Source of the DNA: Rhodospirillaceae bacterium | GTDB lineage: Bacteria > Pseudomonadota > Alphaproteobacteria > JAEUKQ01 | DNA: 64,000 nucleotides | Direction: 5' to 3' | NCBI GenBank assembly: GCA_016722635.1 | Contig: JADKIX010000011.1 | Coordinates: 319,760-383,759 of the forward strand | Shown: piece after piece, positions 4,560-61,466 of the stretch | Position numbering within the stretch: the first letter of the stretch is position 1 | Layout: the number at the start of each line of letters is the position of its first letter | Made by a program: the position numbers and the translations under genes | The notes under the pieces: model-generated | Databases searched by the model: none | Seen by the model: only the letters and a program-made list of their open reading frames with translations | What the model was told of the DNA's origin: nothing

Positions 4560-5078
4560 TTATGACGCATCATAGATAAGTTTGTATTTCCGAGACATTC
4601 TATCCATAGTCAAACGCAGGGGGAACCCCCCTTGCAGTTTTTGCCGCAGCCTGTAGATGTGGCTTTCCACCGTTCGGGTTTCAATATTATTGGCATAACC
4701 CCAAATTTCTTTTAGTAAATCCTTGCGGTTCAACCCTTCCGGCCGATGATGCAATGCTTTTAAAATGGCTATTTCTTTTTCCGTTAAATAGACTTTTTTA
4801 TTGTTTTTTTTACAAAATATATATTGCTGCAAAGGATCAAAAAGATAGAGATCTGTTTCAATTGGTTTCCGTTCATTATTTTGCAACAGCAACTGTAAAT
4901 ACTCAACCAACTGCTGCAGACGGAATGGTTTTTGCAGCCATTTGATCCCGCCTTGACGATATTCAGCCTCCCTATCGGTGGCCGCACTCAGGATAAGAAG
5001 TGGTTGATCTGGACTGGCATGTCTAAAATTTGCCAAAAAATCGTCCATAACCCCTTGATCAAAGCCATCAAGATCCAA
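4560..5078 (-). CDS. OmpR-family response regulator, disrupted; the intact gene would span 4560..5214, with a +1 frameshift in the T5 run at 5171-5175
   Basis: C-terminal winged-helix trans_reg_C domain plus the C-terminal two thirds of a receiver (LDLDGF...LSAAT...QKPF); upstream in-frame and -1-frame segments encode the missing beta1-alpha1-beta2 (MVVSHDVFLISIIK / TDLGNKLGIAVDYTQELSDIY). Confidence 0.7.
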   Translation of the reverse strand: MDLDGFDQGVMDDFLANFRHASPDQPLLILSAATDREAEYRQGGIKWLQKPFRLQQLVEYLQLLLQNNERKPIETDLYLFDPLQQYIFCKKNNKKVYLTEKEIAILKALHHRPEGLNRKDLLKEIWGYANNIETRTVESHIYRLRQKLQGGFPLRLTMDRMSRKYKLIYDAS

Positions 5079-5376
5079 AACAATGACAGGCTTATGAGGA
5101 CGTGGTGGGTATATATCAGATAGCTCTTGGGTGTAATCAACAGCAATTCCTAATTTATTACCTAAATCAGTTTTTAATAATTGAGATCAAAAAAACGTCA
5201 TGGCTTACCACCATGATTTGAGCCGGGATAGCTTTGTTATTTTTTAAATGGCCCAAGTTTTCTTCCTTTTGCTCCCTGCAGCTAATTTTTCTTAACCATT
5301 CTCATCGTAATATGTCATATATTATAAAATTGATTATGAAACAGTGCCAACATTTTATTTTAAACGATAAGAACCC

Positions 5377-9132: not shown

Positions 9133-9718
9133 ATGTTGACCACCCCTTCTGTTCCGAAAAAGCTTTGCTTAAACACCTCTTTTTCATACCGTGTCTGCAC
9201 GAAACTTTTGCTGATTTCCTTCGCCGGTTTTATCCTGGCCAATTGTTCTGCTGGGGATCCCAATGATCCTGGTATCCAAGGGGCGACGGGGGCTGAGCAG
9301 CGGCGCATCCGCAACGGCGGCAATCAAACGGTTTGGGGCGATGGCGGCTTGAACTTATTTGGCAAAAACAATAAGGGGCCGGTCGTGGTTGAAGGGGTTG
9401 GGGTCAACAGCTTTCCTGTGGCGCGCCTCCCTGGATGCTATTTCCTTTATGCCGCTGGTTTCTGCTGATCCTTTTGGCGGTGTCATCATTACCGATTGGT
9501 ATAGCAGTCCGGAACTCCCAAATGAGCGGTTTAAGGTGAATGTACGGATTTTAACCCGTGATCTGCGGGCAGATGGGATTAGCATTTCCTTATTCCGCCA
9601 AACCCGGACAAATGCCAATGCCGCATGGGCAGATGCCATTACCAGCAAAAAGGCTATCCGCGATTTAGAAGATGCGGTTTTGGCCCGCGCCCGCGAATTA
9701 CGAATCGGCGCCCGTTAA
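9133..9718 (+). pseudogene. alphaproteobacterial lipoprotein (DUF3576-like), split by a +1 frameshift at the TTT run 9412-9414
   Basis: ORF 9133-9468 carries a signal peptide/lipobox and ORF 9359-9718 carries the conserved domain (AFLWRASLD...GGVIITDWY); removing one T gives a continuous ...GVNSFLWRASLD... Confidence 0.6.
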
Positions 9719-14310: not shown

Positions 14311-15177
14311 TTATTTTTTTTGTGCCTGCAACCGATGGAGGATGGCTTCTAATTCCTGCAAGGTTTTATACCGCAATGTCAGCATACCGCCGTTCCCATG
14401 CAGGGTAATGCGTGCTTTTGCCCCAAGCAAGGTTGATAAATCTTTTTCCAAGGCAATAATTTCTGATTGACGGTTTTGCCAACGATTAGCTGCAATGTTT
14501 TTTAAAGCTTTATGGTTTTTGCGGCTTAATTCCTCTGTCTCCCGCACGCTTAAATCTTCCGCAATCACCTGTCTTGCTAAACGCACCGGATCCTTGGCAT
14601 TAAGTAGCGCGCGGGCGTGACCCGCGGATAAATCGCCGCGCGTCAGTAATTCTTTAATTTCCGCGGGTAAATCCAGCAATCGCATCAGGTTGGCAATATG
14701 ACTGCGGCTTTTCCCAACCATTTCTGCAATTTCTTCCTGTTTTTTGCCGAATTCATGGAGCAAGCGGTGATAGGCTTCCGCTTCTTCCAATGGCAGTAAA
14801 TCCTGGCGTTGCAAATTTTCAACCAGAGCAATCTGCAGAACTTCCTGGTCATTCATTTCCTTGATAACAACCGGTACTTCTTTTAAGGCAGCAATTTTTG
14901 CTGCCCGCCACCGGCGCTCACCCGCAATAATTTCATACTGTCCCGCAAGATTGGGGTGCTTCCTGACCAATAAAGGTTGCAAAATCCCATCCTGCCGGAT
15001 GGATCCAGCCAATTCATTCAATTGTTCCGGCAGGAATGTCCGCCTTGGCTGTAAGGTGCTGGGTTGTAGCACATCATGGGCCAGTAGCAGGAATGAAGGG
15101 GATGATGTTTCTTCGCCTTCCACCATATTGCCAAATAAAGCCGCTAACCCGCGCCCTAAATTTCGTTTTTCAACCAT
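14311..15177 (-). CDS. parB: chromosome partitioning protein ParB
   Basis: GERRWRAA ParB box and HTH, N-terminal RGLAAL. Confidence 0.92.
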   Translation of the reverse strand: MVEKRNLGRGLAALFGNMVEGEETSSPSFLLLAHDVLQPSTLQPRRTFLPEQLNELAGSIRQDGILQPLLVRKHPNLAGQYEIIAGERRWRAAKIAALKEVPVVIKEMNDQEVLQIALVENLQRQDLLPLEEAEAYHRLLHEFGKKQEEIAEMVGKSRSHIANLMRLLDLPAEIKELLTRGDLSAGHARALLNAKDPVRLARQVIAEDLSVRETEELSRKNHKALKNIAANRWQNRQSEIIALEKDLSTLLGAKARITLHGNGGMLTLRYKTLQELEAILHRLQAQKK

Positions 15178-16092: not shown

Positions 16093-16728
16093 TTAGGCGA
16101 TTCGCGTTATTTTTTCAATGATTAAAATCTTAGCTTGCAAATCTGTTAAACTAGAGTGGGCTTGATACGAAAAATTCCAGTGCTTTTGCGCCTGTTGGAT
16201 TTCTTCTTTCCATAATTTCCCTTTTAAGAAAACAGCCTTGGCCTGGTCATGCCATTGATGGCGGCAAAGGTTAAATAATTGATCCAATTTTGCCAGCGCC
16301 CTGGATGTTACTATATCAATTTTCAGGAATTCAACTGTTTCCACCCGTTGATTAAGTACGGTTATTTTTTTTGATGCAATAGCTGCAGTTCCAAACAGCT
16401 GATAGGCAACTTCCTCCAAAAAAATCGCTTTGCGCTGGTCTGACTCAACTAAAACAACTTCTGGGACACCCATGATGGCTAAAACTATTCCCGGCAAACC
16501 GGCGCCCGATCCCATATCGATTATCTTTTGGGGAAGCACTGGTAATAAGGTCAGGATTTGGCCGCTATCTAAAATATGACGTTCCCAAATATCCCCAACC
16601 GTTTCCTCCGCAATCAAATTCAACCTTTTTTGCCATTGGCCGAGAAGGGTCACATATAATTGCAGGCGCTGAAATGTTTCACGTGAAACATGTAAAAGGG
16701 CTGCACATTCTTCTGCGGTTTTTGTCAT
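16093..16728 (-). CDS. rsmG: 16S rRNA (guanine527-N7)-methyltransferase RsmG (GidB)
   Basis: SAM motif DMGSGAGLPG; synteny with mnmG and parA. Confidence 0.9.
   Translation of the reverse strand: MTKTAEECAALLHVSRETFQRLQLYVTLLGQWQKRLNLIAEETVGDIWERHILDSGQILTLLPVLPQKIIDMGSGAGLPGIVLAIMGVPEVVLVESDQRKAIFLEEVAYQLFGTAAIASKKITVLNQRVETVEFLKIDIVTSRALAKLDQLFNLCRHQWHDQAKAVFLKGKLWKEEIQQAQKHWNFSYQAHSSLTDLQAKILIIEKITRIA
16675..16690. promoter_or_regulatory. parS: parS centromere-like site, perfect 16/16 TGTTTCACGTGAAACA, inside the rsmG 5' coding region
   Basis: exact palindromic consensus ParB-binding site. Confidence 0.8.
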
Positions 16729-16748: not shown

Positions 16749-18615
16749 TTATGCCGTTTGCTGAACGGGCTTTTTATAGGCATATTTCAATAAAATCGTT
16801 AAAGCAGCTGGGGTGATGCCCGGAATACGGGAGGCGGCCCCAACACTATACGGCTTGGCTTGATTAAGCTTTTTTTGCAGCTCGGCCGACAAACCAGGAA
16901 TACCTGAAAAATCCAATAATGGTGGCAAAAAAAGTTCTTCATCTTGACGGAATAACCGGATATCGGTTTCATGCCTTTTCATATAACCAGAATATTTGGC
17001 TTCAATTTCCAATTGCTCTACAATAGCGTTCGGAACCCCCACTAGATTTGGAAAAATTTTGCATAATTGCTGCCAATCTACTAGTGATGCAGCCAACACA
17101 TCCAACACCGATCGTTTAACCCCGTCCGCATTGACGCCCACACCCAAGCGTTGCCATTCTGTCGGGGTGGCCGACATTTTTTCAAGTGTTTGCTGCGTGG
17201 TTTGTAATTGTTCCATTTTGGTTATGTAATGCTGCTGACGAAGCGCACCCACACACCCTATTTTGATCCCACGCCCAGTTAAACGGCGATCGGCATTATC
17301 ACTGCGCAAATGTAGGCGATATTCTGCCCGTGAGGTAAACATGCGGTAGGGTTCATTTGTTCCCAAAGTAACCAGATCATCGATCATAACCCCGATATAG
17401 GATTCACTGCGGTCAAAAAATCTCGGGTGCCTTTCCACTGGCCTTATAAGCGGCATTCAATCCTGCTACAATCCCTTGCGCTGCAGCCTCTTCATACCCC
17501 GTAGTTCCGTTGATTTGGCCTGCCAAAAACAGGCGGGGCATTTTTTTTGCCTCAAGCCAAGGATATAATTCCTTTGGGTCTACAAAATCATATTCAATGG
17601 CATATCCTGGCCTGATCACTTTCGCATTGGCTAAACCCGGGATGGTTTTCAAAAGTGCTAGCTGCACATCTTCCGGCAGGGACGTGGAAATGCCGTTGGG
17701 ATAAACGGTATCGTCATCCAAACCTTCCGGTTCTAAAAATATCTGGTGCCGGGAACGGTCTGCAAAACGCACGACCTTGTCTTCAATAGAGGGGCAGTAA
17801 CGCGGCCCAATGCCTTCAATTTGGCCAGAATACATGGGGGAGCGATGCAAATTGGTCCGAATAATCGCATGAGTCGCCTCATTCGTGGCGGTTAAATAAC
17901 AAGGGATTTGTGGGGTTGTAATAGCCGTGGTTAGATAGGAAAAAGCCGGGATGGGAAAATCGCCGGGCTGCTTCTCCAAGCCTGACCAATCAATGGTCCG
18001 CCCATCTAGTCTGGGAGGAGTGCCTGTTTTCAAGCGCCGCAATTGAAACCCGATTCGCTCGAGTGAATTTGAAAGCCCTAAAGACGGTTTTTCTCCTACC
18101 CGGCCAGCTGGAACCTTTTTCTCGCCAATATGGATAAGGCCGCGTAAAAACGTACCGGTGGTAATCACCACAGCGCCCGCATAAAGGTTCTTTCCCTCAG
18201 CTGTCTGCACGCCGATGATTTCGTGGCTCTTCTCATCAACCAAAAGATTTTCAACGGATGCCTGGTAAATCTCCAGGTTTACCTGTTCCGCCAAGGCCGC
18301 TTGCATGGCAGCCCGGTATAATTTACGGTCGGCTTGCGCCCGCAACCCTCGCACCGCATGCCCTTTACTGGCGTTTAACATACGGAATTGGATACCTGCT
18401 TTGTCAGCTACCCGTCCCATCAACCCATCTAGCGCATCAATTTCCCTGACCAAATGTCCCTTGCCCAATCCACCAATGGCTGGGTTGCAGGACATCTCCC
18501 CAATCGTTGCCTGTTGGTGGGTCACCAGCAATGTCTTGGCCCCTAAACGAGCCGCCGCCGCCGCCGCTTCACAGCCAGCATGGCCACCCCCAATGACGAT
18601 CACATCTACTTTCAT
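16749..18615 (-). pseudogene. mnmG: tRNA uridine-5-carboxymethylaminomethyl synthesis enzyme MnmG (GidA), split by a +1 frameshift in the A6 run 17415-17420 (may be a sequencing artefact)
   Basis: ORF 17413-18615 is the N-terminal 400 aa ([13 protein letters not shown] motif) and ORF 16749-17456 is the C-terminal 235 aa (YRMFTSRAEYRL); deleting one A joins ...KAPEIF to DRSESYIGV... Confidence 0.85.
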
Positions 18616-18674: not shown

Positions 18675-20063
18675 CTATTTGCCAATGCAAAATTCCCTGA
18701 AAATAACGTCCAACATCTCTTCGATATGGACCCGCCCGGTGATTTCACCCAAGGCCCTTATGGCCAAGCGAAGATCTTCGGCCATTAATTCTATAGATAC
18801 GGTCATATCAGCTTGTGCTAAGCTCAGCAAGCATTTTTCCAATGCTTGGCGGTGGCGGTGGCGGGTAATCAGGGGGGCAGAGCCAATTGCTGTTCCCACC
18901 ATTTCCCCTATTTTCTGTTTCAAGAACTCCATAAAATCCGCTAAGCCCGCACCAGTTTGCAAACTGATAAAAAAGGTATTTGGTGCGGGTGATGCTGCCA
19001 TAGGAACAGAAGGGGATAGATCAATTTTATTGACCAAAAAAATTGTCTCCGAAGTCACTAATTCCCGAATATCATCGGGTATTTTCGGCCAGTCTTGTGC
19101 CGAAACCATCAGTAGCTGGATATCACTTGCCAACGCGTGCTGCCGTGCCCGCCTGACACCTTCCTCTTCAATGCTATCCGTGGTTGGCCGCAACCCCGCC
19201 GTATCGGCAATCGTGACCGGTACCCCCCCGATATTCAAGGTTGTTTCCACAATATCGCGGGTCGTGCCAGCAATAGGGGAGACGATGGCAACATCTCGCC
19301 TTGAAAGCCAGTTAATCAAGCTTGATTTGCCAGCATTTGGTGGCCCTACGATGGTCAGCATCAATCCTTGCCTGATCCGTTGGCCGCGATTGCCGTCTGC
19401 CAGGTGGTTTTTAATCTGGGTTTGCAAATCAGCCAATTTTTGCTTGACCATGTGGTTTAATTCAGCCGGTAATTCTTCATCAGGAAAATCAATATAAGCT
19501 TCGAGATAAGCCGCCAAATGCACTAAAGCATGCCGCCAAATTTCGTATAATTTTCCCAGTTCCCCTTGATATTGGCGCAAGGCTTGGCGACGCTGAGCTT
19601 CCGTTTCTGCCGCAATTAAATCAGCCAATCCTTCAACGGCCGTCAAGTCCAACTTTCCGTGTTGAAAAGCCCGTTTGGTGAATTCGCCAGCTTCCGCAAG
19701 ACGGGTTTCAGGAAACTGCTGTAATTCCTTAATCAATATTTCAACAATGGCGCGGCTGCCATGCACCTGCAATTCTGCCATATCTTCCCCAGTAAAACTG
19801 GCAGGGTTGGGAAACCACAAAACCAACGCTTCATCTAAGATTTTAGCTTGCTGCCCTGCCAGGTTATCGCTGGAGCTGCTGTTGATATATAGTAAATTTC
19901 GCTGAGCCCGCCGAGGCAAAGGCAGTTTTTTTTGGGTGATTTGGGTTAGGATATCGGCAGTTTTTGGGCCAGAAATACGAATAATGGCAATCGCTGCGGG
20001 CAATGACCCGGTCGATAAAGCAAAAATAGTTTCCGTTAGATTGGGATCAGCAGGAAGGGACAA
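18675..20063 (-). CDS. mnmE: tRNA modification GTPase MnmE (TrmE)
   Basis: G-domain GPPNAGKSSL...TTRD, C-terminal CxGK. Confidence 0.92.
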   Translation of the reverse strand: MSLPADPNLTETIFALSTGSLPAAIAIIRISGPKTADILTQITQKKLPLPRRAQRNLLYINSSSSDNLAGQQAKILDEALVLWFPNPASFTGEDMAELQVHGSRAIVEILIKELQQFPETRLAEAGEFTKRAFQHGKLDLTAVEGLADLIAAETEAQRRQALRQYQGELGKLYEIWRHALVHLAAYLEAYIDFPDEELPAELNHMVKQKLADLQTQIKNHLADGNRGQRIRQGLMLTIVGPPNAGKSSLINWLSRRDVAIVSPIAGTTRDIVETTLNIGGVPVTIADTAGLRPTTDSIEEEGVRRARQHALASDIQLLMVSAQDWPKIPDDIRELVTSETIFLVNKIDLSPSVPMAASPAPNTFFISLQTGAGLADFMEFLKQKIGEMVGTAIGSAPLITRHRHRQALEKCLLSLAQADMTVSIELMAEDLRLAIRALGEITGRVHIEEMLDVIFREFCIGK

Positions 20064-30525: not shown

Positions 30526-31173
30526 ATGGGTATTCAAAAAAAAATAGATAAACCTGCCAAGCAACATTTGACCCTATATAGCCATCCTGATTCAGGGCAT
30601 TGTTACAAAGTTAAGTTAATGATGGCAATTGCGGGCTTGGCCCATGACTATCAAATCATCGATATTAATATCCCGCGGCCGCAAAGGCCGGAGTCTTTTA
30701 GAAAACTAGCAAAATTCGGGGAAGTGCCTTTACTAACCGCTGGTCAACAAGCTTATGTCCAATCCAATGCGATTTTGATGTTTTTAGCAAATCTCACCAA
30801 AAAATTTGGGGCAGAGAATGAAATATTGCTGTCAAAAGTACGGGAATGGCTGTTCTGGGAGGCTAACCGCTTGGGTTTTAGCCTGCCTAATTTGCGCTAT
30901 GCCCGGCGTTTCGCACCACAAAATTATCCGGCAGGCGCTATTTCTTGGATTGAAGGGCGGTATAAAACAGATATTAGCCGTTTAGAAGAAGAATTGGCGG
31001 ATGGAAGAACTTTTATCACCGGAGAAAAGCTAACAATAGCTGATTTTTCCTTGTGCGGATACTTATTTTGGGCAGAACAAGCCGAGGTTGATGTACCTCG
31101 AAAGGTTCAACAATGGCTGCAACGAATAAGCAAGATTCCAGGTTGGGGACACCCAGACATCTTATTGAAATAA
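30526..31173 (+). CDS. glutathione S-transferase family protein
   Basis: thioredoxin-like N-domain (TLYSHPDSGHCYKV) plus helical C-domain. Confidence 0.75.
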   Translation: MGIQKKIDKPAKQHLTLYSHPDSGHCYKVKLMMAIAGLAHDYQIIDINIPRPQRPESFRKLAKFGEVPLLTAGQQAYVQSNAILMFLANLTKKFGAENEILLSKVREWLFWEANRLGFSLPNLRYARRFAPQNYPAGAISWIEGRYKTDISRLEEELADGRTFITGEKLTIADFSLCGYLFWAEQAEVDVPRKVQQWLQRISKIPGWGHPDILLK

Positions 31174-31233
31174 TAACCAAAAGGCTACACAATCTATAAA
31201 CTCTATTGTCCAGCCTTTATTCTTTTCATTAGC

Positions 31234-32580
31234 CTAAAGAATAAATTTACTGAGATCGGTGTTTTTCGCAAGTCCGGCAATCCGCTCTTGTACATAGGCA
31301 TCATCGATGGTAATCGTCGATCCTGCTTGGTCACTGGCTTGGAAACTGATCTCTTCCAACAGTTTCTCTAAAACCGTATGGAGGCGACGGGCACCGATAT
31401 TTTCAACGGTTGAATTGATCATCGCGGCTAAATCCGATAAACTATCAATGGCTTCTTCCGTAAAGTGCAAGGTAATATCTTCGGTTTTTAACAAAGCTTT
31501 ATATTGTTTGATCAAGCTGGTTTCAGGTTCCCGCAGAATGCGTTTAAAATCATCGCGGCTTAAAGCTTTAAGCTCCACCCGAATCGGCAAACGACCTTGC
31601 AATTCCGGCAATAAATCAGATGGCTTAGCCATATGGAAAGCCCCCGATGCAATAAATAAGATATGATCGGTTTTAACGGTGCCGTATTTCGTGGGGACTT
31701 GCGTACCCTCAATCAATGGCAATAGGTCACGTTGCACGCCCTCACGGCTGACATCCGCTCCCATCCGCTCGGATCTCGCGCAAATTTTGTCAATTTCATC
31801 GATGAAAACAATGCCGTTTTCCTCAACTGTTTTAATGGCTTCTTGAACCATTTTTTCCTGATCCAGCAATTTATCGCTTTCCTCGACAATCAATATTTTA
31901 TAGCTTTCCGCAACAGTTGTACGACGGGTTTTCGTGCGTCCGCCCATGGCCTGCCCAAGCATGTCATTGAGGTTCAGCATGCCCATGCTGGCCCCAGGCA
32001 TCCCCGGGATATCAAAGGTCGGCAAGCGGTTGCCGGTATCCTTCACTTGGATTTCAATTTCTTTTTGGTCGAGTTCGCCTGTCCGTAACATTTTACGGAA
32101 TTTAGCGCGGGTTTCAGGGGTCGATGATTCCCCAACCAAGGCATCCAGAACCCTTTCTTCCGCCATAATTTCAGCTTTACTGTTCACTTCTTTGCGCATG
32201 CGTTCGCGTGTTTGGCTTATGCTGATTTCTATTAAATCACGGATGATTTGCTCGACGTCCCGTCCGACATAACCTATTTCTGTAAATTTGGTTGCCTCAA
32301 CCTTAATAAAAGGGGCTTGTGCGAGTTTAGCCAAGCGGCGGGCAATTTCTGTTTTGCCAACCCCTGTAGGCCCTATCATGAGAATGTTTTTTGGCAAGAC
32401 TTCATCGCGAAGTTCGGCAGGCAATTGTTGGCGCCGCCAGCGATTGCGCAGGGCGACGGCCACTGCCTTCTTGGCTTCATGCTGGCCGATAATATAGCGG
32501 TCTAGTTCCGAGACAATCTCCCGTGGGCTGAAATTGGCAGCGGTGGAGGAGGGATTTGAGGTGGTTAAATGATCGTTCAT
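31234..32580 (-). CDS. hslU: ATP-dependent protease ATPase subunit HslU
   Basis: Walker [16 protein letters not shown]; AAA+ I-domain. Confidence 0.95.
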
Positions 32581-45448: not shown

Positions 45449-47368
45449 ATGAGTAAAGTTATCGGAATTGATTTAGGAACCACCAATTCCTGCGTTGCTA
45501 TTATGGAAGGCAAAGACACGAAAGTTATTGAAAATGCCGAGGGGTTACGGACAACCCCCTCAATTGTTGCTTTTACCGATACAGATGAACGGTTGGTTGG
45601 CCAGGCCGCGAAGCGGCAAGCGGTAACCAATCCGGAAAATACATTATTTGCGATTAAGCGGCTTATTGGCCGGCGTTATGATGACGCGATGGTTAAAAAA
45701 GATAAGGGATTAGTTCCTTACAAAATTATTGCTGGGGATAATGGGGATGCTTGGGTTGAAGCCCGTGGCAAAAAATATTCGCCTTCCCAAGTCAGTGCTT
45801 TCATTTTACAAAAAATGAAAGAAACCGCAGAAAATTATTTGGGTGAAAAAGTCACCCAAGCCGTGATTACGGTGCCTGCTTATTTCAATGATTCGCAACG
45901 CCAAGCTACCAAAGATGCTGGTCGGATTGCCGGTTTAGAGGTTTTGCGTATTATTAACGAACCCACTGCGGCAGCTTTAGCTTACGGGCTTGAGAAAAAA
46001 GGCAGCGGCATTATTGCTGTTTATGATTTGGGTGGTGGTACCTTTGATATTTCTGTACTTGAAATTGGTGATGGTGTATTCGAGGTCAAGTCAACCAATG
46101 GCGATACCTTCCTTGGGGGTGAAGACTTTGACAACCGCATTATGGATTATTTGGCCGAAGAATTCCGCAAAGAAAATGGGATTGACCTGCGCAAAGACAA
46201 GCTGGCTTTGCAGCGCCTGAAAGAGGCTTCTGAGAAAGCCAAGATTGAGCTTTCCAGTGCGATGCAAACGGAGGTCAATCTACCTTTCATTACGGCGGAC
46301 AAGAATGGGCCCAAGCATATGAATATCCGTTTAACAAGGGCAAAGCTTGAATCCTTGGTGGATGAATTTATCCAACGTACTCTGGAGCCTTGCCGGGCTG
46401 CTTTAAAAGATGCTGGTTTGAAAGCTTCCGAAATCAATGAGGTTGTTTTGGTCGGCGGTATGACGCGTATGCCTAAGGTGATTGAAACAGTCCGCAGCTT
46501 TTTTGGCCGTGAACCTCACCGAGGTGTTAACCCTGATGAAGTAGTGGCAGTTGGGGCTGCTATCCAGGGGGCGGTTTTGAAAGGTGAAGTGAAAGATGTC
46601 TTGTTACTCGATGTCACGCCCCTTTCTTTAGGGATTGAGACATTAGGTGGGGTTTTCACCCGGTTAATTGACCGCAATACCACTGTTCCTACCAAAAGAA
46701 GTCAGATTTTCTCAACGGCAGATGACAGCCAAACCGCTGTTACCATCCGCGTTTTCCAAGGGGAGCGCGAAATGGCGGCTGACAACAAGCTACTGGGCCA
46801 ATTTGATTTGTTAGGGCTGCCAGCGGCACCAAGGGGCGTTCCGCAGATTGAGGTAACATTCGATATTGATGCAAACGGCATTGTCAGCGTTTCTGCAAAA
46901 GATAAGGCAACCAATAAAGAGCAGCAAATCCGCATCCAGGCTTCCGGCGGGTTAAATGAGCAAGATATTAAGAAAATGGTTAAAGACGCCGAGGCTAATG
47001 CCAGTGAGGATAAGAAAAAACGGGCGTTAGTGGAAGCCCGCAACCAAGCCGAGTCACTGGTTCATGCCAATGAAAAAATGATCAAGGATAATGAGGGCAA
47101 AATCAGTGCAACCGATAAGGATTCCATCCAAAAAGCCATTGGTTCCTTAAAGGAAGTGTTGTCAGGGACGGATATCGAAGCGATTAAGTCCCGGTCCGAA
47201 TCGTTGGCGCAATTAGCGATGAAAATGGGGGAAGCAATGTATCGCTCCCAGCAGCAAACATCCGCACCTCAAGGCGACAATCAAGGTGAAGGCAAGACAG
47301 AAAATGAAGAAAAAGTTGTTGATGCTGATTTTCAAGAAGTCAACAATAACAAACGTAAAAAACCATAG
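45449..47368 (+). CDS. dnaK: molecular chaperone DnaK (Hsp70)
   Basis: [10 protein letters not shown] and DLGGGTFD signatures; full length 639 aa. Confidence 0.97.
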
Positions 47369-47382
47369 AGATGTTTCTTCCG

Positions 47383-47414
47383 CCAGCCTTAAATCTTTTT
47401 AAGGCTGGTTTTGG
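47383..47414 (+). terminator. rho-independent terminator/attenuator between dnaK and dnaJ
   Basis: 8-bp stem ccagcctt / aaggctgg, 10-nt loop, followed by ttttgg. Confidence 0.55.
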
Positions 47415-47429
47415 ATTTTAGGGTAGAAA

Positions 47430-48587
47430 ATGGCCGCAGCTAAACAAGATTATTATGAAATGCTTGGGGTATCCAAAACGGCAAGCGGCGAGGATTTGAA
47501 AAAAGCTTACCGTGCGTTGGCGATGAAACACCATCCGGATCGCAATCCGGGTAATCAGGCATCAGAACAAAAATTTAAAGAAATCAACGAAGCCTACGAT
47601 GTTCTAAAAGATGAGCAGAAAAGGGCAGCCTATGACCAATTTGGTCATGCGGCCTTCCAAAGTGGGGGGGGGCGTTCAGGGCGGCCTAACGGGCAGGGGG
47701 CAGAGGGATTTGGTTTTGCCGGGGGTGGTTTTGCCGATATTTTTAATGAAATGTTTGGTGATTTTACGGATTCGCGTACCGGTGGTCGCCAAGCCCGTGG
47801 TACGGATCTGCGCTATAATATGGAAATAAGCTTAGAGGAGGCTTTTTCGGGTAAGCAAGTGACGATCCGCGTGCCGGGGTCATCTGCTTGCGATGCTTGC
47901 CACGGTTCTGGCAGCGAGCAGGGTAGCCAGCCTATTAACTGCCCTACCTGTCGCGGTAGCGGCAAGCAACGGGCAGCCCAAGGGTTTTTTACCATTGAGC
48001 GTACCTGCCAACAATGTGCGGGCTTAGGAAAGATTATTGAAAAACCATGCCGGGTTTGCCGGGGCAGCGGTACCGTTAAACGTGAAAAAACCTTGGAAGT
48101 CAATATTCCCGCAGGGGTTGAAGACGGCTCCCGTATACGCTTATCAGGACAGGGGGAAGCTGGTATGCGCGGCTCACCTGCAGGGGATCTTTATATTTTT
48201 GTGAGTATCCGGCAACATCCGATTTTCCAGCGGGAGGGGGCAACCATTGAATGCCAGATTCCTATCCCGCTGGTAACAGCTGTTCTAGGTGGATCGGTAG
48301 ATGTGCCAACGGTTGAAGGAAATTGGGGTAAAGTCACCATTCCTGCGGGTACCCAAAGCGGACAAAAATTTCGTTTGAAAAGCAAAGGAATGAGTGTCTT
48401 GCGCTCCTCCAACCGTGGGGATATGTATTGTACCGTGGTGACTGAAACGCCCGTCAATCTCACCAAGCGCCAGCAAGAGCTTTTAAAAGAATTTACGGAA
48501 ATTTCTGAAGGTAATCCAAAAAACTATCCAATTATGGAAAAATTTTTAACCAAAGTGAAAGAATTTTGGAAAAATTTGCGACCGTAG
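47430..48587 (+). CDS. dnaJ: molecular chaperone DnaJ
   Basis: J-domain HPD, G/F region, four CxxCxGxG zinc-finger repeats. Confidence 0.95.
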
Positions 48588-48613
48588 CTTTTTCCCCCAC
48601 ATGATGTGAGCTG

Positions 48614-49273
48614 ATGACAATCCAGGCCAAGCGGTTATTAACAGCACTCGAAATAAAAGAAATTTTTAAAATATTTTCTGTGGCTAATCCGAAGCCGAAG
48701 GGGGAATTAATATATCAAAACCCCTACACCTTGCTGGTTGCAGTCGTTTTGTCTGCCCAATCAACCGATAAAGGCGTTAATAAGGCAACATCTGCTTTAT
48801 TTGCGGTCGCAAGCAGCCCCCAGGCCATGGTTGCATTAGGTGAGGAGAAACTACGGGAATATATCAAAACAATTGGCCTTTATAACAGTAAAGCTAAAAA
48901 CATCTTGTTGCTGAGCCAAAAATTGCTGACGGATTTTCAAGGGCAAGTGCCCGCAAACCGGCAACAGCTAGAGGAACTGCCAGGTGTTGGTCGGAAGACC
49001 GCTAATGTGGTTCTAAATATTGTTTTTGGCGAACCGACGATTGCTGTTGATACCCACGTTTTTCGGGTGGCCAATCGCACAGGACTGGCACTGGCAGCCA
49101 CGCCATCCTTGGTTGAAAAAATGCTTGGGGAAAGGGTTCCACACGCTTACCAACAATCTGCCCATCATTGGCTTATTTTACATGGGCGATATGTTTGTAA
49201 AGCCCGCAAGCCAGATTGTCAGCGTTGTTGTATTAAAGATATTTGCGAATATCCTGAAAAAACTGCTAGCTAA
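48614..49273 (+). CDS. nth: endonuclease III
   Basis: HhH-GPD motif plus C-terminal 4Fe-4S Cys cluster CKARKPDCQRCC...C. Confidence 0.9.
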   Translation: MTIQAKRLLTALEIKEIFKIFSVANPKPKGELIYQNPYTLLVAVVLSAQSTDKGVNKATSALFAVASSPQAMVALGEEKLREYIKTIGLYNSKAKNILLLSQKLLTDFQGQVPANRQQLEELPGVGRKTANVVLNIVFGEPTIAVDTHVFRVANRTGLALAATPSLVEKMLGERVPHAYQQSAHHWLILHGRYVCKARKPDCQRCCIKDICEYPEKTAS

Positions 49274-49314
49274 TCCCGTTCGGCGGATTCTAAAAGACAT
49301 TGTTTCTTAGTTTC

Positions 49315-49692
49315 TTAAATTTTTACTAAGTGCGATAAGCATAAATCCGTGTCTGTTGCAATACCTGCGCGAGAACGGGCGATCACATGAGTGGCCCGCA
49401 AAGACTGTTGATGGGCGCGGGAGTAAAAAAATATGTCAACCACACAATCTGCTTGCTGGAATTGCCATAATTCAGCTGGGGGATCGGACCTTTTTAAAAC
49501 GGGGCTGCCGAATAACGCCATAATCTCCTGTGGCGATTTATTAATGATAGCAGCAGAAGTAACTAAAGCTCGGTTGGGCAAGGAGCTATCTAGGTTTTTG
49601 CTCCCTGACTGACAGGCAGAAACGGACAACCAGCTAGCTAACAGAAAAACTGCCCGCAACCAGTTTGGAAATAGGGGACAACCAGCGATCAT
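49315..49692 (-). CDS. hypothetical small lipoprotein
   Basis: signal peptide with lipobox LSVSAC; 125 aa; no confidently recognised domain. Confidence 0.4.
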   Translation of the reverse strand: MIAGCPLFPNWLRAVFLLASWLSVSACQSGSKNLDSSLPNRALVTSAAIINKSPQEIMALFGSPVLKRSDPPAELWQFQQADCVVDIFFYSRAHQQSLRATHVIARSRAGIATDTDLCLSHLVKI

Positions 49693-49707
49693 TACCAGTT
49701 GCTTAAA

Positions 49708-50382
49708 CTATTGGCCAGACGGTGTTTCATCAATTTGATAAGTTGGTTGGGTATTAGTTGAGCTAACCGAAACATGCTCATACCCATGATGCGGGTTATC
49801 ATGTAAATCAGAAAGAAGCTCAAGCTGGCCAGATAATGCCCCTCCTTTTTCTACCTCTAGCTGGGCATAGCGGATGGAACCCACAACTTTGCCAGTGGAA
49901 CGCACAGTTAAACGGCCGTGGACAGTAATGTCACCTTCAAACCGCCCACTAATGTCAGCTGTTTCGATGTGGGCCGAACCTTTGAAAACCCCAAATTCAG
50001 AAATTTCAATACTGCGGCTATCGGTTAAGGAAGCTTCCACGCGACCTTCCACGATCAACCTTTGGCAAGCCCGGATTTCCCCAGTCAAAACGATATCGCG
50101 ACCGACGATTAAGCGTTTGCCCTCCGAGTCGGAATTCGTTTTTGCTTCATTACGGCGCACGGAGATAGAGGAAGATATATTTTCGGTATGGATGCCGGAA
50201 GCAGGCCTTGCCATCGGGGCAACAGGACGGTTATTCAAGGGGGTAGCATTTGGCTCGCTACGGTGCACCGGGCGATTACTGGTCAGCACGGAGGGTTCTG
50301 GTGAATTTTCCCGTGATGGGGAAGAAGAAACTGTTTCTTTTAAGGGCATTTCACGCTCTTTCTTTTTTCCGAACATGGCCAA
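49708..50382 (-). CDS. bactofilin-family cytoskeletal protein with a disordered N-terminal region
   Basis: beta-helical bactofilin repeat pattern (IVLTGEIRACQRLIVEGRVEASL...ISGRFEGDITVHGRLTV); Ser/Pro-rich N-terminus. Confidence 0.7.
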   Translation of the reverse strand: MAMFGKKKEREMPLKETVSSSPSRENSPEPSVLTSNRPVHRSEPNATPLNNRPVAPMARPASGIHTENISSSISVRRNEAKTNSDSEGKRLIVGRDIVLTGEIRACQRLIVEGRVEASLTDSRSIEISEFGVFKGSAHIETADISGRFEGDITVHGRLTVRSTGKVVGSIRYAQLEVEKGGALSGQLELLSDLHDNPHHGYEHVSVSSTNTQPTYQIDETPSGQ

Positions 50383-50543
50383 ATCCTTATACTGTACCTG
50401 AAAATAAATATATGTATTATTCTCTACATACCATAATTATATAAATTGCAACAGAAGTTTTTTAAAGAAAACAGCAGCGCCATAGCCTTTCTTCGAATCA
50501 TCGCTTTTCAGCCTTGTGTTCAGGCACTGTGTGTAGCAACCCG

Positions 50544-50993
50544 TCATGATCTTCTATAACTGATCATGGCAACCCCTATCATCGATAAAATAATACCGGC
50601 GATATTAATCAGGTTTAGCTGTTCCTTAAGAACCAGCAAGCCAACCGCCATTAATATGATATTGATCACCACCCCGGTTACAACATTTCCCACACTTAAA
50701 TCCCAGCCCTGGCGATACATCAGTAAAAATCCCAATTCCATCAAAATAACAGCCCCGGCAATTCCTAACTGAACCCAGCCTAACTGTTTCATATGGGTGA
50801 CAAGCCCTCCTTGGATGGGGAAAAGCAATAAAATGGGGATACAAATCGCGAGTACAGCCATATAAATAGCTGTAATCGAGACAAGCGGGTTAATGGTTGG
50901 CGATATTTTTTTAACCAAGAAATGATATCCAACCGTGCCAAAAATGGCTACGGCAGCTGATAAATAATATAAAATGCTACCTTTTTCTGACAT
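50544..50993 (-). CDS. small DMT/EamA-like integral membrane protein; start at MSEKGS
   Basis: about 149 aa with 4-5 predicted TM helices; weak EamA-like pattern. Confidence 0.4.
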   Translation of the reverse strand: MSEKGSILYYLSAAVAIFGTVGYHFLVKKISPTINPLVSITAIYMAVLAICIPILLLFPIQGGLVTHMKQLGWVQLGIAGAVILMELGFLLMYRQGWDLSVGNVVTGVVINIILMAVGLLVLKEQLNLINIAGIILSMIGVAMISYRRS

Positions 50994-51169
50994 GGGTAAT
51001 ATCCTTAAAAGCAGAATAAGCATGAGATAATAGGGAGAATGAATGGCATGACAGCATAGCCAAAATCAATCAACCTAAAAAGGTCTTTTTTGCATCGGTC
51101 ACGAAAATAACTTGTACAAGTTTATAATTGATGGCAGAACAAGGGAAGTTTAAGGGGATGGATGAAATG

Positions 51170-52162
51170 GCTAACCACCAATATGATGTTGTGGCGATTG
51201 GCAATGCTATCGTTGATATTTTGGCGCATGTTGAAAGTGTTTTTCTGGATAAAGCGGGACTTAAAAAAGGGGCAATGACCCTGATTAATGAAGCCCAATC
51301 GGATAAATTATATGAATTGATGGGCCCAGCCACCGAAGTTTCCGGCGGTTCTGCCGCCAATACGGCAGCGGGTTTAGCATCGCTTGGGGTTCGGACTGCT
51401 TTCATTGGCAAGGTACGCAATGACCAGCTTGGCAATATTTTTCGCCATGATATTCAAGCCGCTGGCGTTCATTTCGATAGTCAAGCGTTGGTCAAGGGGC
51501 CATCAACAGCCAGATGTATGGTTTTTGTGACCCCCGATTCCCACCGTACGTTGCAAACTTATTTGGGGGCCTGCGTAACCCTTTCAACTAAAGATGTGCC
51601 GAAAACTTTAATTGAATCTGCGGCGATCACCTATCTCGAGGGATATTTATGGGATTCCCCTTCGGCCGCTGCCGCCTGCGAGCAGGCTATTGATTATGCC
51701 AAGAAGAAAGGTAAAAAAGTTTCCATCAGCCTTTCCGACCCTTATTGCGTTGATAGGCACCGGCAAAAATTCCAAAAATTGTGCGAGGTTACGGATATCC
51801 TTTTTGCCAATGATGCCGAGATCATGGCTTTATGGCAAACAGATCAGTTGGCGTCTGCGGTTGAGCAAACCAGGCAACAGGTGCCTTTGGCAGCTGTTAC
51901 CCAAGGGGCTGCAGGTTCTTTGATCATTACCAAGCAAGAAACCATCCTTGTTAAAGCTGTCCCTGTTCGGGATATTGTTGACACCACCGGTGCAGGTGAC
52001 TTATATGCAGCAGGATTTTTATATGGTTTTGTTCGAGGATATCCATTAAAAGATTGTGGGGCAATTGCATCCCTTGCCGCCGCAGAAATTATCAGCCATT
52101 TGGGTGCTAGGCCAGCTGTTTCTCTATCAAAGCTTTTAGAAGGTTCGCGTATTATTTTATAA
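51170..52162 (+). CDS. PfkB-family carbohydrate/nucleoside kinase, probably adenosine kinase; ORF open from 51128
   Basis: PfkB N-terminal GNAIVD and C-terminal DTTGAGD motifs. Confidence 0.75.
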   Translation, partial: ANHQYDVVAIGNAIVDILAHVESVFLDKAGLKKGAMTLINEAQSDKLYELMGPATEVSGGSAANTAAGLASLGVRTAFIGKVRNDQLGNIFRHDIQAAGVHFDSQALVKGPSTARCMVFVTPDSHRTLQTYLGACVTLSTKDVPKTLIESAAITYLEGYLWDSPSAAAACEQAIDYAKKKGKKVSISLSDPYCVDRHRQKFQKLCEVTDILFANDAEIMALWQTDQLASAVEQTRQQVPLAAVTQGAAGSLIITKQETILVKAVPVRDIVDTTGAGDLYAAGFLYGFVRGYPLKDCGAIASLAAAEIISHLGARPAVSLSKLLEGSRIIL

Positions 52163-52180
52163 CTAACGATTGGAAAGTGT

Positions 52181-54001
52181 ATGTTACTCAGAAATTTAGC
52201 AATTATTGCCCACGTCGATCACGGTAAGACAACCTTAGTTGATCAGTTGTTACGCCAAAGCGGAACATTTCGCGCCAACCAGCAAATGGTGGAAAGGGTG
52301 ATGGATTCGAATGAGCTTGAAAAGGAACGCGGTATCACTATTTTGGCCAAATGCACGTCGGTTACGTGGAAAGGCATTAAGCTGAATATTGTGGATACGC
52401 CGGGGCACGCCGATTTCGGCGGAGAAGTTGAGCGTATTTTAAACATGGTGGATGGGGTCGTGGTGTTGGTGGATGCAGCTGAAGGGCCTATGCCGCAAAC
52501 CAAATTTGTGACCATGAAAGCTTTAAAACAAGGGTTGAAGCCGATTGTGGTCATTAACAAGGTGGATCGTCCTGATGCCCGAGCCCAAGAGGTACAAAAT
52601 CTGGTTTTTGATTTGTTTGCCTTATTGGGTGCTACCGATGAGCAACTTGATTTTCCAACCCTTTTCGCATCTTCCAAGCAGGGATGGGCCGCACATTCCT
52701 TAGATGCCCCCCGCCTAAATCTAGAGCCGCTTTTTGATTTGATTGTCAAACACGTGGCGCCGCCGACATGCAACCCCGATGAAAAATTCGCTATGCTTGC
52801 TACCATTATCGAATCAGATCCCTATTTGGGGCGTATTTTAACAGGGCGTATCAATACGGGAAAAGCAAAAGTCAATATGCCAGTCAAGGCACTAAGCCCC
52901 GATGGAAAGGTCATCGAACAAGGACGTCTAACCAAATTATTGGCTTTCCGCGGTGTGGAACGGATCCCAGTTGAGCAAGCAGTTGCAGGTGATATTATAG
53001 CCATTGCGGGGTTAGGGGCACCCACCGTGGCCGATACCATTTGCGATCCCGCTGTCATGACCCCCATTCCAGCCCAACCCATTGATCCGCCAACCCTGTC
53101 CATTAATATCAGCGTGAATGATTCACCCCTAGCTGGACGGGAAGGTAATAAAGTTACCAGCCGAGAAATTCGCGCCAGGCTTTGGAAGGAAGGCGAGGGG
53201 AACGTCGCCATTCGCGTCAAGGAATCGGATCAGAAGGATTCGTTTGAGGTTTCTGGACGGGGTGAATTGCAATTGGGTGTGTTGATTGAAACCATGCGGC
53301 GGGAAGGCTTTGAATTGTCCATCAGCCGACCGAAGGTGATTTATCAGCAAGATCCCGTAACTTCACAACGCTTGGAACCGTTCGAGGAGGTATTGGTTGA
53401 CGTGGACGAAGAGTATGCGGGCGTTGTGGTTGAAAAAATTGGCATGCGTCGGGGGGAAATGTCTGACATGCAGCCATCCGGCAGCGGCAAAACCCGTGTC
53501 ACTTTCATTGTGCCGTCTCGCGGATTGATCGGTTATCATGGCGAATTTATGACGGATACCCGGGGTACAGGTGTTATGAACAGGTTGTTCCACGGTTATG
53601 CGCCTTATAAAGGAGCCATTGGCGGCCGACGTAATGGCGTATTGATTTCTACTTCCAACGGTAAAGCTGTAACCTATGCTTTATGGTATTTGGAAGAACG
53701 GGGTATTTTGATGGTTCCCCCCGGCGTTGATGTGTATGAAGGGATGATCCTCGGCGAGCATTCGCGTGAGAATGATTTGGACGTGAATCCGATTAAGGAA
53801 AAGCATCTCAGCAACGTTCGGACAACGGCGAAAGAAGAGGCTATCCGCCTGACTCCACCGCTGATCATGACGTTAGAAAAAGCGATGTCTTATATCCAAG
53901 AAGATGAATTGGTTGAAGTCACGCCCAAGAACATCCGCCTACGCAAGAAATACTTAAACCCTAATGAGCGCAAGAGATTCAACAAACAAAATTCGGATTA
54001 A
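52181..54001 (+). CDS. typA: translational GTPase TypA/BipA
   Basis: G1 AHVDHGKTTL, EF-G-like domains, 606 aa. Confidence 0.95.
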   Translation: MLLRNLAIIAHVDHGKTTLVDQLLRQSGTFRANQQMVERVMDSNELEKERGITILAKCTSVTWKGIKLNIVDTPGHADFGGEVERILNMVDGVVVLVDAAEGPMPQTKFVTMKALKQGLKPIVVINKVDRPDARAQEVQNLVFDLFALLGATDEQLDFPTLFASSKQGWAAHSLDAPRLNLEPLFDLIVKHVAPPTCNPDEKFAMLATIIESDPYLGRILTGRINTGKAKVNMPVKALSPDGKVIEQGRLTKLLAFRGVERIPVEQAVAGDIIAIAGLGAPTVADTICDPAVMTPIPAQPIDPPTLSINISVNDSPLAGREGNKVTSREIRARLWKEGEGNVAIRVKESDQKDSFEVSGRGELQLGVLIETMRREGFELSISRPKVIYQQDPVTSQRLEPFEEVLVDVDEEYAGVVVEKIGMRRGEMSDMQPSGSGKTRVTFIVPSRGLIGYHGEFMTDTRGTGVMNRLFHGYAPYKGAIGGRRNGVLISTSNGKAVTYALWYLEERGILMVPPGVDVYEGMILGEHSRENDLDVNPIKEKHLSNVRTTAKEEAIRLTPPLIMTLEKAMSYIQEDELVEVTPKNIRLRKKYLNPNERKRFNKQNSD

Positions 54002-55379
54002 TAGCATATTGGGACAAAACCAACATTTAGGTTCACCTAAAAAATCTTGGTGGTTGAGAGCGGTCGGTCTGTATACAGACCGCCGCAGTTTTGCCTTGTT
54101 ATTGCTGGGGATATCTGCAGGCATGCCGTATTTCCTGTTGCATGGATCCTTAACCGCTTGGTTGCGTGAGGGTGGCGTGGATCGAGCAATGATAGGCTAT
54201 ATCAGTTGGGTTGGAGTTTTCTACGGGGTGAAAGTTTTATGGGCCCCCTTGGTAGATCAAATAAAAATCCCCCTTCTTACCCGGTTCTTGGGAAAGCGGC
54301 GCGGCTGGATTTTGCTGTCCCAGATAGGGATTGTCAGTGGATTATTATTGATGGTTTGGGGAGCACCTGTTTTTCCTGACCCTATACTTGATCAGCCTAA
54401 AGGCCTTGGAAATTTAACATATCTTGGGAATATGGGGATGTTTATCCTGGCGATTTTGTGGGTGGCCTTTTGGTCGGCAACCCAGGATATTGCCATTGAT
54501 GCCTACCGGATCGAGGTGGCTGGGGAAGAGTTCCAAGGAGCTATGGTTTCCAATTACATTTTGGGCTATCGCATCGCCGGATCTTTGGTGGTAGGGGTGG
54601 GGGCTTTTTATTTGGCGGATTTATTGTCGTGGCCAGATGCCTATTTATTGATGGCTGCTTGTTTCCTGCCACTTATCCTGGTGGTTTTGCTGTCTCATGA
54701 ACCTCAAGCTTACTCAACATCTCCTGCAAGGGGGTTTCTTGCACACATCCAACAAGCTGTTTTAAGGCCCTTTATTGAGTTTTTTCAACGCCAATCTTGG
54801 AGTAGCGCTCTTGTTATTTTGGGGTTTATCGCTCTTTGCAAAGTCAGTGATATTGTCATGGGGCCAATGGTCAACCCTCTTTACAAAGATTTGGGGTTTA
54901 CGAATATCGAAATTGCCAATATTACCAAGGTTTATGGATTTGCGATCACTATATTAGGGGGGTTCATAGCAGGAATTTTAGTTGCCCGCTATTCTGCTAA
55001 GAGGTTGTTGTTGCCTGCTATCATTTTACTAGCTGTGCCTAACCTGATGTTTATGGTGCTGGCAGACCATCCAAAAGATATCCTATTATTGGCTTCAGCC
55101 ATCAGTGCCGATAATTTTGGCAATGGCTTGGCGGCTACAATTTTAGTTGCTTATTTCTCGGGCTTGGCCAATAAGGCCTATACGGCTACGCAATATGCTT
55201 TATTCAGTTCTTTAATGAACTTACCAGGCACCATCTTGGGCGGATTTTCAGGCTGGATAACCGAGCAGGTTGGCTATAGCAATTTCTTTTTGATCAGTGC
55301 GTGCTTGGCATTGCCAGCTCTTTCCTTGGCCTTTATCCTGCAATGGCGCCCAGGGGTTAAATCGCAGGGGAAGACCTAA
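53964..55379 (+). CDS. ampG: muropeptide MFS permease AmpG; start uncertain, the called ATG overlaps typA by 38 nt
   Basis: MFS 12-14 TM topology; AmpG-like N-terminal LLLLGISAG... Confidence 0.75.
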   Translation: MSARDSTNKIRINSILGQNQHLGSPKKSWWLRAVGLYTDRRSFALLLLGISAGMPYFLLHGSLTAWLREGGVDRAMIGYISWVGVFYGVKVLWAPLVDQIKIPLLTRFLGKRRGWILLSQIGIVSGLLLMVWGAPVFPDPILDQPKGLGNLTYLGNMGMFILAILWVAFWSATQDIAIDAYRIEVAGEEFQGAMVSNYILGYRIAGSLVVGVGAFYLADLLSWPDAYLLMAACFLPLILVVLLSHEPQAYSTSPARGFLAHIQQAVLRPFIEFFQRQSWSSALVILGFIALCKVSDIVMGPMVNPLYKDLGFTNIEIANITKVYGFAITILGGFIAGILVARYSAKRLLLPAIILLAVPNLMFMVLADHPKDILLLASAISADNFGNGLAATILVAYFSGLANKAYTATQYALFSSLMNLPGTILGGFSGWITEQVGYSNFFLISACLALPALSLAFILQWRPGVKSQGKT

Positions 55380-56064
55380 GTTTATCAACCATATACCCAA
55401 CGGATCGGACGGTACGGATTATATCGGGGTCGTTGGGCTTCTTAGGATTATATAGGGCCTGCCGCAAGCGCCCGATGTGGACATCAACTGTTCGAAGATC
55501 AATATAGTGACCTTGGCCCCACACTGCATCCAGCAATTGTTCCCTGGTTAACGGACGGCCTTGGTTTAGCAGCAAATGCCTTAATAGTTTAAATTCTGTT
55601 GGGCTTAATAAAATCAACTCTTGTTCCTGATAAACTTGGTGATGGTCAAGATCAACGGTTAAATTGGCATAAAGCAATTGGCTGTTTGAGGTTAACTGCA
55701 AACTACGCCGCAGCAGGCTTTTCACCCGGGCCAGCAATTCCTTGGTGCTGAACGGTTTGGTCATATAATCATCAGCGCCTGTTTCCAGCCCGCGCAGCTT
55801 GTCATCTTCCTCCGTACGGGCTGTCAAAATAAGGATGGGCAATAAATAAAATTGTGGGGAACGTCTTAAGATCCGGCAAAGTTCTATGCCAGAAATTTTA
55901 GGCACCATCCAATCGGCAATCACCAAGTCGGGTTTCTGTTCCCGGATCAATGTTAAGGCAATCTCACCATCTTTAGCCAGGATCGCCTGGTAACCTGCAC
56001 ACTCTAAGTTATATTCCAGGATAGCCATCAGGGCTGGATCATCTTCAACAATCAAAATTGTCAT
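55357..56064 (-). CDS. phoB: phosphate regulon response regulator PhoB
   Basis: receiver (ILIVEDD...D...KPF) plus OmpR wHTH; operon position after phoU. Confidence 0.9.
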   Translation of the reverse strand: MTILIVEDDPALMAILEYNLECAGYQAILAKDGEIALTLIREQKPDLVIADWMVPKISGIELCRILRRSPQFYLLPILILTARTEEDDKLRGLETGADDYMTKPFSTKELLARVKSLLRRSLQLTSNSQLLYANLTVDLDHHQVYQEQELILLSPTEFKLLRHLLLNQGRPLTREQLLDAVWGQGHYIDLRTVDVHIGRLRQALYNPKKPNDPDIIRTVRSVGYMVDKLRSSPAI

Positions 56065-56078
56065 CGAAACAGGCTGGA

Positions 56079-56837: not shown

Positions 56838-56857
56838 CTTTTCCTTTTTTTATTTTT

Positions 56858-57622: not shown

Positions 57623-57680
57623 AGGTTTCTACTAAACGCCTTATTGTTTTTAATAAAAAGCAAAAAATTCTAGCTTGGTT

Positions 57681-60300: not shown

Positions 60301-60336
60301 GCCATTCCCTCCATTTTAGGGCCAATATCTTAATCG

Positions 60337-61350: not shown

Positions 61351-61466
61351 CATGAGCTTAGTCCTAATTTTGATAGGGGTTGCAAATATCATTATCAATT
61401 CAAATGATAATATCAATCATATTGGCAAATGATTATGACAACTTCATGACAAACGGATTGATTATA

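Follow-up and report, generated by a model that had tools for sequence, protein, structure and literature searches.

The stretch of DNA analyzed here (the window) comprises 64,000 nucleotides (nt) of contig JADKIX010000011.1, positions 319,760 to 383,759, from the Rhodospirillaceae bacterium assembly GCA_016722635.1. It belongs to a gene-dense genome with a guanine plus cytosine (GC) content of about 45%, and it carries on the minus strand, at positions 16749-18615, the tRNA-modification gene mnmG (gidA). The gene is 1,867 nt long, and one extra T (an A on the plus strand) interrupts its reading frame. On the minus strand the sequence at the break reads GGA AAG GCA CCC GAG ATT TTT TGA CCG CAG TGA ATC C. 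The run of six T (T6) extends from position 17420 to 17415 (A6 on the plus strand), and its last T opens a TGA stop codon at 17415-17413. Two open reading frames (ORFs) result. The first, at 17413..18615, encodes 400 amino acids (aa) and ends with KAPEIF before the stop, while the second, at 16749..17456, encodes 235 aa, its start being placed mechanically at the ATG at 17456. A previous sequence-only reading had described mnmG as split into two ORFs by one extra A in the A6 run; its coordinates and the KAPEIF end were confirmed from the sequence and the ORF list. Deletion of one T from the run produced a MnmG of 621 aa, and the sequence of the full-length protein across the T5 junction is KAPEIFDRSESY.

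The repaired T5 protein matched the NCBIfam MnmG equivalog profile TIGR00136 from position 2 to 614 of 616, with a score of 839.8 bits for a cut-off of 524.85. The two ORFs of the window divide this profile between them, the N-terminal one covering positions 2-394 (626.6 bits) and the C-terminal one positions 391-614. In the repaired protein, Pfam domains were found at residues 4-395 (PF01134, the GIDA domain), 459-548 (PF21680) and 555-609 (PF13932). The break at codon 400/401 coincides with a domain boundary, five residues past the end of GIDA and before the helical domains. Known MnmG/GidA proteins (TIGR00136; PF01134, PF21680 and PF13932) act in the FAD-dependent synthesis of tRNA uridine-5-carboxymethylaminomethyl(34) with MnmE as partner, and the window has the same domains and the same neighborhood; it differs in that it alone has the ORF split at codon 400/401. 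The full-length profile, the domain layout, the MnmE partner and the synteny are all present in the window, and what is missing is a single uninterrupted reading frame. The order hemE-hemH-rho-mnmE-mnmG-rsmG-parA-parB...leuS is the same in relatives, and the order mnmE-mnmG-rsmG is the same in the contigs L001, L003 and L020. No chance expectation was applied to the break, because it is a discrete lesion.

We compared the site with seven independent contigs from different samples: L001 and L002 (both Logan), L003 (the activated-sludge metagenome-assembled genome (MAG) contig JBGAWJ010000001.1), L010 (ERZ795056), L020 (ERZ28613422), L021 (ERZ27275390) and L022 (JGI 3300012956). Their mnmG genes are 93-95% identical to the window at the nucleotide level for L001, L002, L003 and L010, and 97.8-98.2% identical for L020, L021 and L022, which are conspecific. 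In the DNA alignments all seven have T5 at the site, reading GAR ATT TTT GAY, and the extra T is private to the window and the sole indel in mnmG. These results agree with two further statements of the earlier reading, that an A5 version would read through the conserved MnmG junction and that neither half of the gene has other lesions. A protein search with the repaired MnmG found intact homologs of 621 aa at 96% identity, and identities of 96-98% link the repaired protein to intact 621-aa proteins from sister lineages. The MnmG cluster at 90% identity has 16 members. Among the 15 listed, 12 have the full length of 621 aa; the other three, with 263, 263 and 361 aa, miss the N-terminus alone, the 361-aa protein beginning after a run of N in scaffold L020. 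All the listed members read through the junction, and ten further 621-aa members beyond the seven contigs extend this observation at the protein level. A 400-aa MnmG product was detected neither among the 15 listed members nor by exact look-up, and a split mnmG was not found in any relative examined. Exact look-ups of the 235-aa product, of the repaired 621-aa protein and of the window's RNase PH were likewise without a hit. There was also no variation in tract length as would be expected of a phase-variable contingency locus, all other sequences having exactly T5.

The selection acting on the gene was evaluated by placing substitutions on terminal branches with five sequences. The branch leading to the window's mnmG carries 31 synonymous and 7 nonsynonymous substitutions, and that of the intact L010 gene 30 and 5. 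The pairwise ratio of nonsynonymous to synonymous substitution rates (dN/dS) against L010 was 0.060 for the part upstream of the frameshift and 0.056 for the part downstream. When four relatives were required to agree, three substitutions in mnmG were unique to the window (two synonymous and one nonsynonymous), and the 663 nt that follow the stop contain none of them. The comparison of this downstream part with the conspecific L021 gave 12 synonymous and 2 nonsynonymous codon changes. The relaxed selection and the additional lesions past the stop that mark a decaying pseudogene were thus not observed, dN/dS being low in both halves and the indel being single. Since neither side of the stop shows decay, the frameshift would be either evolutionarily instantaneous or not real.

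The mnmG lesion is not isolated. About 59 kb of the window were aligned to relatives at 95% identity or above, and the remaining ORFs were checked for full profile coverage. Three frame-breaking differences were found in these roughly 59 kb, all of them private single-base insertions, at 5184, at 9411-9416 and at 17415-17420; the other genes are full length. Neither of the first two insertions lies in a homopolymer. In the DUF3576 gene, the window reads AAC AGC TTT C CTG and the first-known relatives read AAC AGT TTC CTG. A haplotype with AGC was predicted before it was seen, and it was then found by exact look-up of the repaired DUF3576 protein (P0139). This haplotype X, on contig L035 (Logan SRR11673995, which carries P0139), reads AGC TTT CTG; all 1,399 of its 1,399 aligned bases are identical to the window, from which it differs only in being without the extra base. 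The DUF3576 gene of the window has its own T followed in tandem by the C of the other haplotype. The second case is a gene for an OmpR-like regulator, where the window reads TTG ATC T CAA, contig L019 reads TTG ATC CAA and contig L017 reads TTA ACT CAA. Here the window combines the ATC of L019 with the T of the ACT of L017. Over 4.9 kb L017 is 98.3% identical to the window, and the extra T at 5184 is the sole indel. An assignment of this extra base to the A5 run at 5171-5175 was rejected, as the alignment with relatives puts it at 5184.

The sequence flanking the mnmG insertion is a mosaic of two haplotypes. Upstream of the break, 192 nt are identical to the haplotype of L020, L021 and L022, and downstream of it the identity is to the haplotype of L010, over 164 nt. 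Each flank differs from the opposite haplotype at 11 sites or more. The crossover interval, 17412-17422, encloses the T-run, with flanking SNPs at 17412 (C or T on the coding strand, GAC/GAT) and at 17422 (GAG/GAA), and the sequence common to both haplotypes at the junction is restricted to ATTTTTGA, that is, 8 identical bases. A path switch in a de Bruijn graph was rejected as the cause of the mosaic on account of this short stretch of identity. The mosaic would result either from natural recombination between sister populations or from a strain-chimeric consensus. From the observed density of single-nucleotide polymorphisms (SNPs) and of switch points, we roughly estimate the chance that all three insertions fall at SNP clusters or switch points to be of the order of 1e-4 or less. 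Over most of its length mnmG is 99-100% identical to L021; the identity falls to about 94% in two patches of about 200 nt (17251-17414, and approximately 18016-18215, corresponding to mnmG positions 400-600), one of which is identical to the L010 lineage.

Features of the mnmG locus and of the two other genes interrupted by single-base insertions. Coordinates refer to the window.
Feature	Position	Strand	Remarks
mnmG 5' segment, codons 1-400	17413..18615	-	GIDA FAD/catalytic domain PF01134, residues 4-395; premature TGA at 17415-17413
T6 run with one extra base	17415..17420	-	T5 (GAR ATT TTT GAY) in 7/7 relatives sequenced across the site
mnmG 3' segment, codons 401-621	16749..17414	-	PF21680 and PF13932 helical domains; +1 frame, intact to TAA
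L010-type patch, 164 nt identical	17251..17414	-	at least 11 differences from conspecific L020/L021/L022
mnmE, GTPase partner of MnmG	18675..20063	-	intact, 462 aa, all three domains
rsmG (gidB)	16093..16728	-	intact, directly downstream of mnmG
DUF3576 gene	9133..9718	+	private +1 base within 9411-9416; ORFs 9133..9468 and 9359..9718; 194 aa in relatives
OmpR-like regulator gene	4560..5256	-	split by private +1 T at 5184; 231 aa in relatives

We then considered the accuracy of homopolymers in the window as a whole. It contains 585 runs of at least 5 nt, including 67 of at least 7 nt, and 9-nt runs number just three in the whole 64 kb. Of the 585 runs, 540 were covered by relatives with an identity of 95% or above, and three of these 540 were discordant in length, two of them intergenic, so that the mnmG run alone is genic. 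With 3 of 540 runs discordant and one in a gene, a systematic homopolymer error was therefore rejected. A dozen independent contigs match the region from 23 to 64 kb of the window at 98.4-99.9% identity, with no coding indel. In multi-way alignments the singleton indel belongs to the window; short-read contigs of the same species have none, with the exception of one Logan contig. In contig L027 (Logan SRR28161541), private indels of its own split phoU into ORFs of 67 and 187 aa at 1106-1862; the window is thus not alone among the public assemblies of this population in having singleton frameshifts.

We consider it probable that the extra T in mnmG is an artefact of the assembly or consensus of a strain-mixed sample, because the lesion is private, because the gene is under strong purifying selection, because two tandem-allele +1 insertions lie nearby, and because the haplotype switches at the insertion itself. 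The lesion is confined to one assembly, and like lesions occur at strain-polymorphic sites of the same assembly. The source community would hold several closely related strains of one uncultured activated-sludge alphaproteobacterium. Where the reads of two haplotypes differ at adjacent positions, the aligner could render this by pairing an insertion with a deletion, and a consensus computed from a pile-up or a partial-order graph might retain the insertion only; both bases would then stand in tandem, with one base gained. We infer that the assembly process rather than a mutation caused the break, and that mnmG in the organism has T5, its product being a normal MnmG of 621 aa that acts with the intact MnmE.

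Residual frameshifting indels are documented in long-read metagenome assemblies, those of activated sludge included (PMC9262707; PMC12007338). The window resembles the cases of residual indels that fragment gene calls in long-read or strain-mixed metagenome assemblies, a problem quantified with the IDEEL test and for which correction tools such as Kastor exist, in that private single-base indels break conserved genes, in that the organism is from activated sludge with co-existing strains, and in that intact versions exist in short-read assemblies. It differs from the classical homopolymer error of nanopore sequencing in that its runs are accurate and two of the three lesions lie at SNP clusters. 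The combination of these two properties points to strain-mixture consensus effects. The sequence-only reading had offered three alternatives, a homopolymer sequencing error, a very recent pseudogenisation and a tract rescued by transcriptional slippage. The first two fit a private lesion without decay, and error is the one that we favor, while rescue by slippage is the weakest. The error as it was worded there would imply generic miscalling of homopolymers, which is at odds with one discordance inside a gene among 540 checked runs, and from the comparisons made here it should be refined to a rare consensus error at a strain-polymorphic site.

Several observations weigh against an artefact. Homopolymers of the window are otherwise highly accurate (3 of 540 discordant), so that the T6 is not attributable to a high background of error. 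The mnmG insertion does not have the form of two alleles in tandem, both flanking haplotypes having T5, and it is tied to the two other insertions by association. No contig with exactly the mnmG haplotype of the window was found, which leaves room for a private real mutation. Finally, patchy repair of a recombination heteroduplex could in principle generate the same tandem-allele products in vivo.

These same points bear on the possibility that the T6 is real, i.e. a very recent and private +1 slippage mutation that truncates MnmG after the GIDA domain and has not yet been purged. The change from T5 to T6 is a common spontaneous one, the homopolymer calls are otherwise reliable (among 540, a single discordance falls inside a gene), there is no contig carrying exactly the mnmG haplotype of the window that could contradict the T6, and the window is about 2% distant from its conspecifics in mnmG and represents a distinct strain there. 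The 400-aa product would be devoid of the C-terminal helical domain that binds MnmE. In E. coli, the C-terminal residues 550-629 of MnmG are required for MnmE binding (PMC4027165), and the truncation would therefore be a loss of function. The modification (c)mnm5U34 would be lost or strongly reduced, in a cell that is viable but impaired. Mutants of gidA/mnmG are viable in many bacteria. However, if three frame-breaking insertions per approximately 60 genes are extrapolated to the genome, the number of conserved genes broken would be well above one hundred, despite a dN/dS of 0.06. In addition, there is not one private substitution downstream of the mnmG stop, and the neighboring mnmE is fully intact; L035, from an independent data set and identical at 1399 of 1399 positions, is without the DUF3576 insertion. 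Two of the three insertions copy the alternative allele of a nearby SNP, which would be rare by random mutation (by a rough estimate, a few percent per site). We regard a real mutation as unlikely, although it ranks second among the explanations. If it were true, a housekeeping tRNA-modification gene would have been caught right after its inactivation, at a site that resembles that of RF2.

That resemblance raises the possibility of a genuine T6 from which full-length MnmG is nonetheless made, either by +1 ribosomal frameshifting of the RF2 type at A_UUU_UGA_C or by slippage of the RNA polymerase dropping one U. In the first route, the peptidyl-tRNA-Phe would leave UUU and re-pair with the UUU that overlaps it, and UGA-C would act as a weak stop. 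The site UUU_UGA_C has the core of the RF2 signal, namely a re-pairable P-site codon, UGA and a 3' C; on the 5' side of the UUU codon, at a distance of 3 nt, there is a GAG triplet, spaced like the internal Shine-Dalgarno (SD) sequence of RF2; and both halves of mnmG are intact and constrained. As in RF2 (prfB), with its CUU_UGA_C and internal SD, the shift would be +1 and a functional part lies downstream. In a minority of RF2 genes UUU_U replaces CUU_U, and the 3' C weakens termination; UUU_U is, however, far less efficient than CUU_U, and an efficient RF2 shift needs a proper internal SD (PMC5009743). The mnmG site lacks a real SD stimulator, since there is just the GAG at the RF2 spacing and the GGAAAGG about 10 nt upstream is, by inspection, at the wrong spacing for +1. 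Nor is a need for frameshifting conserved, as T5 keeps the gene in frame in all seven contigs, three of which are conspecific and share the GAG ATT TTT context. Unlike RF2, the site thus shows neither conservation nor a stimulator and has the less efficient UUU_U, so that it is a matter of resemblance only. Furthermore, the two other frameshifts of the window are without slippery context, and a recoding specific to this locus does not account for the pattern.

The route through the RNA polymerase would require a 1-nt deletion in the transcript, from a tract of just 6 nt that is T5 in close relatives. Transcriptional slippage grows exponentially as the run lengthens and yields mostly insertions, deletions occurring rarely at runs, and no restoration of frame was observed even in Buchnera (PMC5574713). 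Like the genes with long poly(A/T) tracts that are rescued by slippage in the AT-rich endosymbionts Buchnera and Blochmannia, mnmG is frameshifted in an A/T homopolymer of an otherwise intact gene. It differs from them in its tract, which has 6 nt where about 9 or more are found in those genes, in a GC content of 45%, in its in-frame relatives and in the transcript deletion that would be needed. An A/T tract of about 9 nt or more, an AT-rich genome and an out-of-frame length kept among relatives, which characterize slippage rescue, were accordingly not found at this locus. Recoding and a split protein are very unlikely even when taken together, and recoding by itself, through either route, is highly improbable. 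Loss of MnmEG-dependent U34 modification alters the maintenance of the reading frame, and a leaky frameshift in mnmG could in that sense be self-referential; that a newly arisen leaky frameshift in this tRNA-modification gene yields some full-length MnmG from a genuine T6 by the RF2-like mechanism seems scarcely credible. The last alternative, in which the T6 is real and the two ORFs are translated separately and reassembled into a functional split MnmG, has in its favor the break at a domain boundary (GIDA 4-395, helical 459-609) and an AGGA four nucleotides upstream of the ATG at 17456, but this AGGA-ATG is ordinary coding sequence that is also present in the intact L021 and L022 and has not been selected for restart, no split mnmG was found in any relative, and the arguments against a real T6 allele apply to it as well, so that we give it next to no credence.

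Other features of the window were inspected for lesions. A 1-nt deletion at 37539 was rejected as a fourth coding lesion, as the cytochrome b561 gene ends with its TAA directly before it and the protein is unchanged; it is private with respect to four conspecific contigs (on the coding strand, TAA A becomes TAA G). An apparent truncation of FtsK was also rejected, the gene running off the start of the window with no indel against L014 or L017. Candidate split genes among neighboring ORF pairs of one strand, at 38101/38486, 50544/51070, 49315/49708, 2915/3713, 41954/42598 and 52181/53964, and others, proved to be complete separate genes according to Pfam and NCBIfam. For the EamA ORF at 50544-51023 on the minus strand, the upstream ORF is antisense to pfkB, a 149-aa protein is called there in relatives and the counterpart in the conspecific contig L023 is of the same size, and a split was rejected; this is a genuine half-size EamA protein, with one domain instead of the usual two of DMT transporters. 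ParB has 288 aa and, owing to a difference at an A8 run by its stop (14311-14320), is five residues shorter than the 293-aa protein of the sister species L001; its length is matched by the conspecific L020, and the difference is natural variation. In the interval 31180-31236, between the GST gene (30526-31173) and hslU (31234-32580), comparison with five conspecific contigs revealed that the window lacks 2 nt at 31180 and has 17 additional nt at about 31220 (TTCTTTTCATTAGCCTA), both intergenic.

A Trans_reg_C domain is present in the OmpR-like regulator, whose receiver-like region at the N-terminus has SHD in the place of the acidic motif of typical receivers. Response_reg was not detected by Pfam even in the repaired regulator, which may therefore have a degenerate pseudo-receiver as its N-terminal domain.

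The population to which the window belongs recurs in public data. For the regions 46913-64000 and 23285-43675, many public metagenome assemblies unrelated to one another contain it at 98.4-99.9% nucleotide identity (ERZ28613422, ERZ27275293, ERZ27275390, ERZ15185498, JGI 3300012956, SRR11674002, SRR28161539, SRR28161541 and GCA_020051655.1), several of which are labelled activated sludge. The closest species representative is the MAG JBGAWJ01, at about 92% identity, and the organism is an uncultured alphaproteobacterium.

For the curation of this genome, at least three private single-base insertions make conserved genes look like pseudogenes, and two of them bear the tandem-allele signature. 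Strain-mixed metagenome assemblies can be screened for this signature, which calls for caution before such 'pseudogenes' are counted as genome decay. For the biology of the organism the break is of little consequence, a normal mnmE-mnmG-rsmG operon being almost certain.

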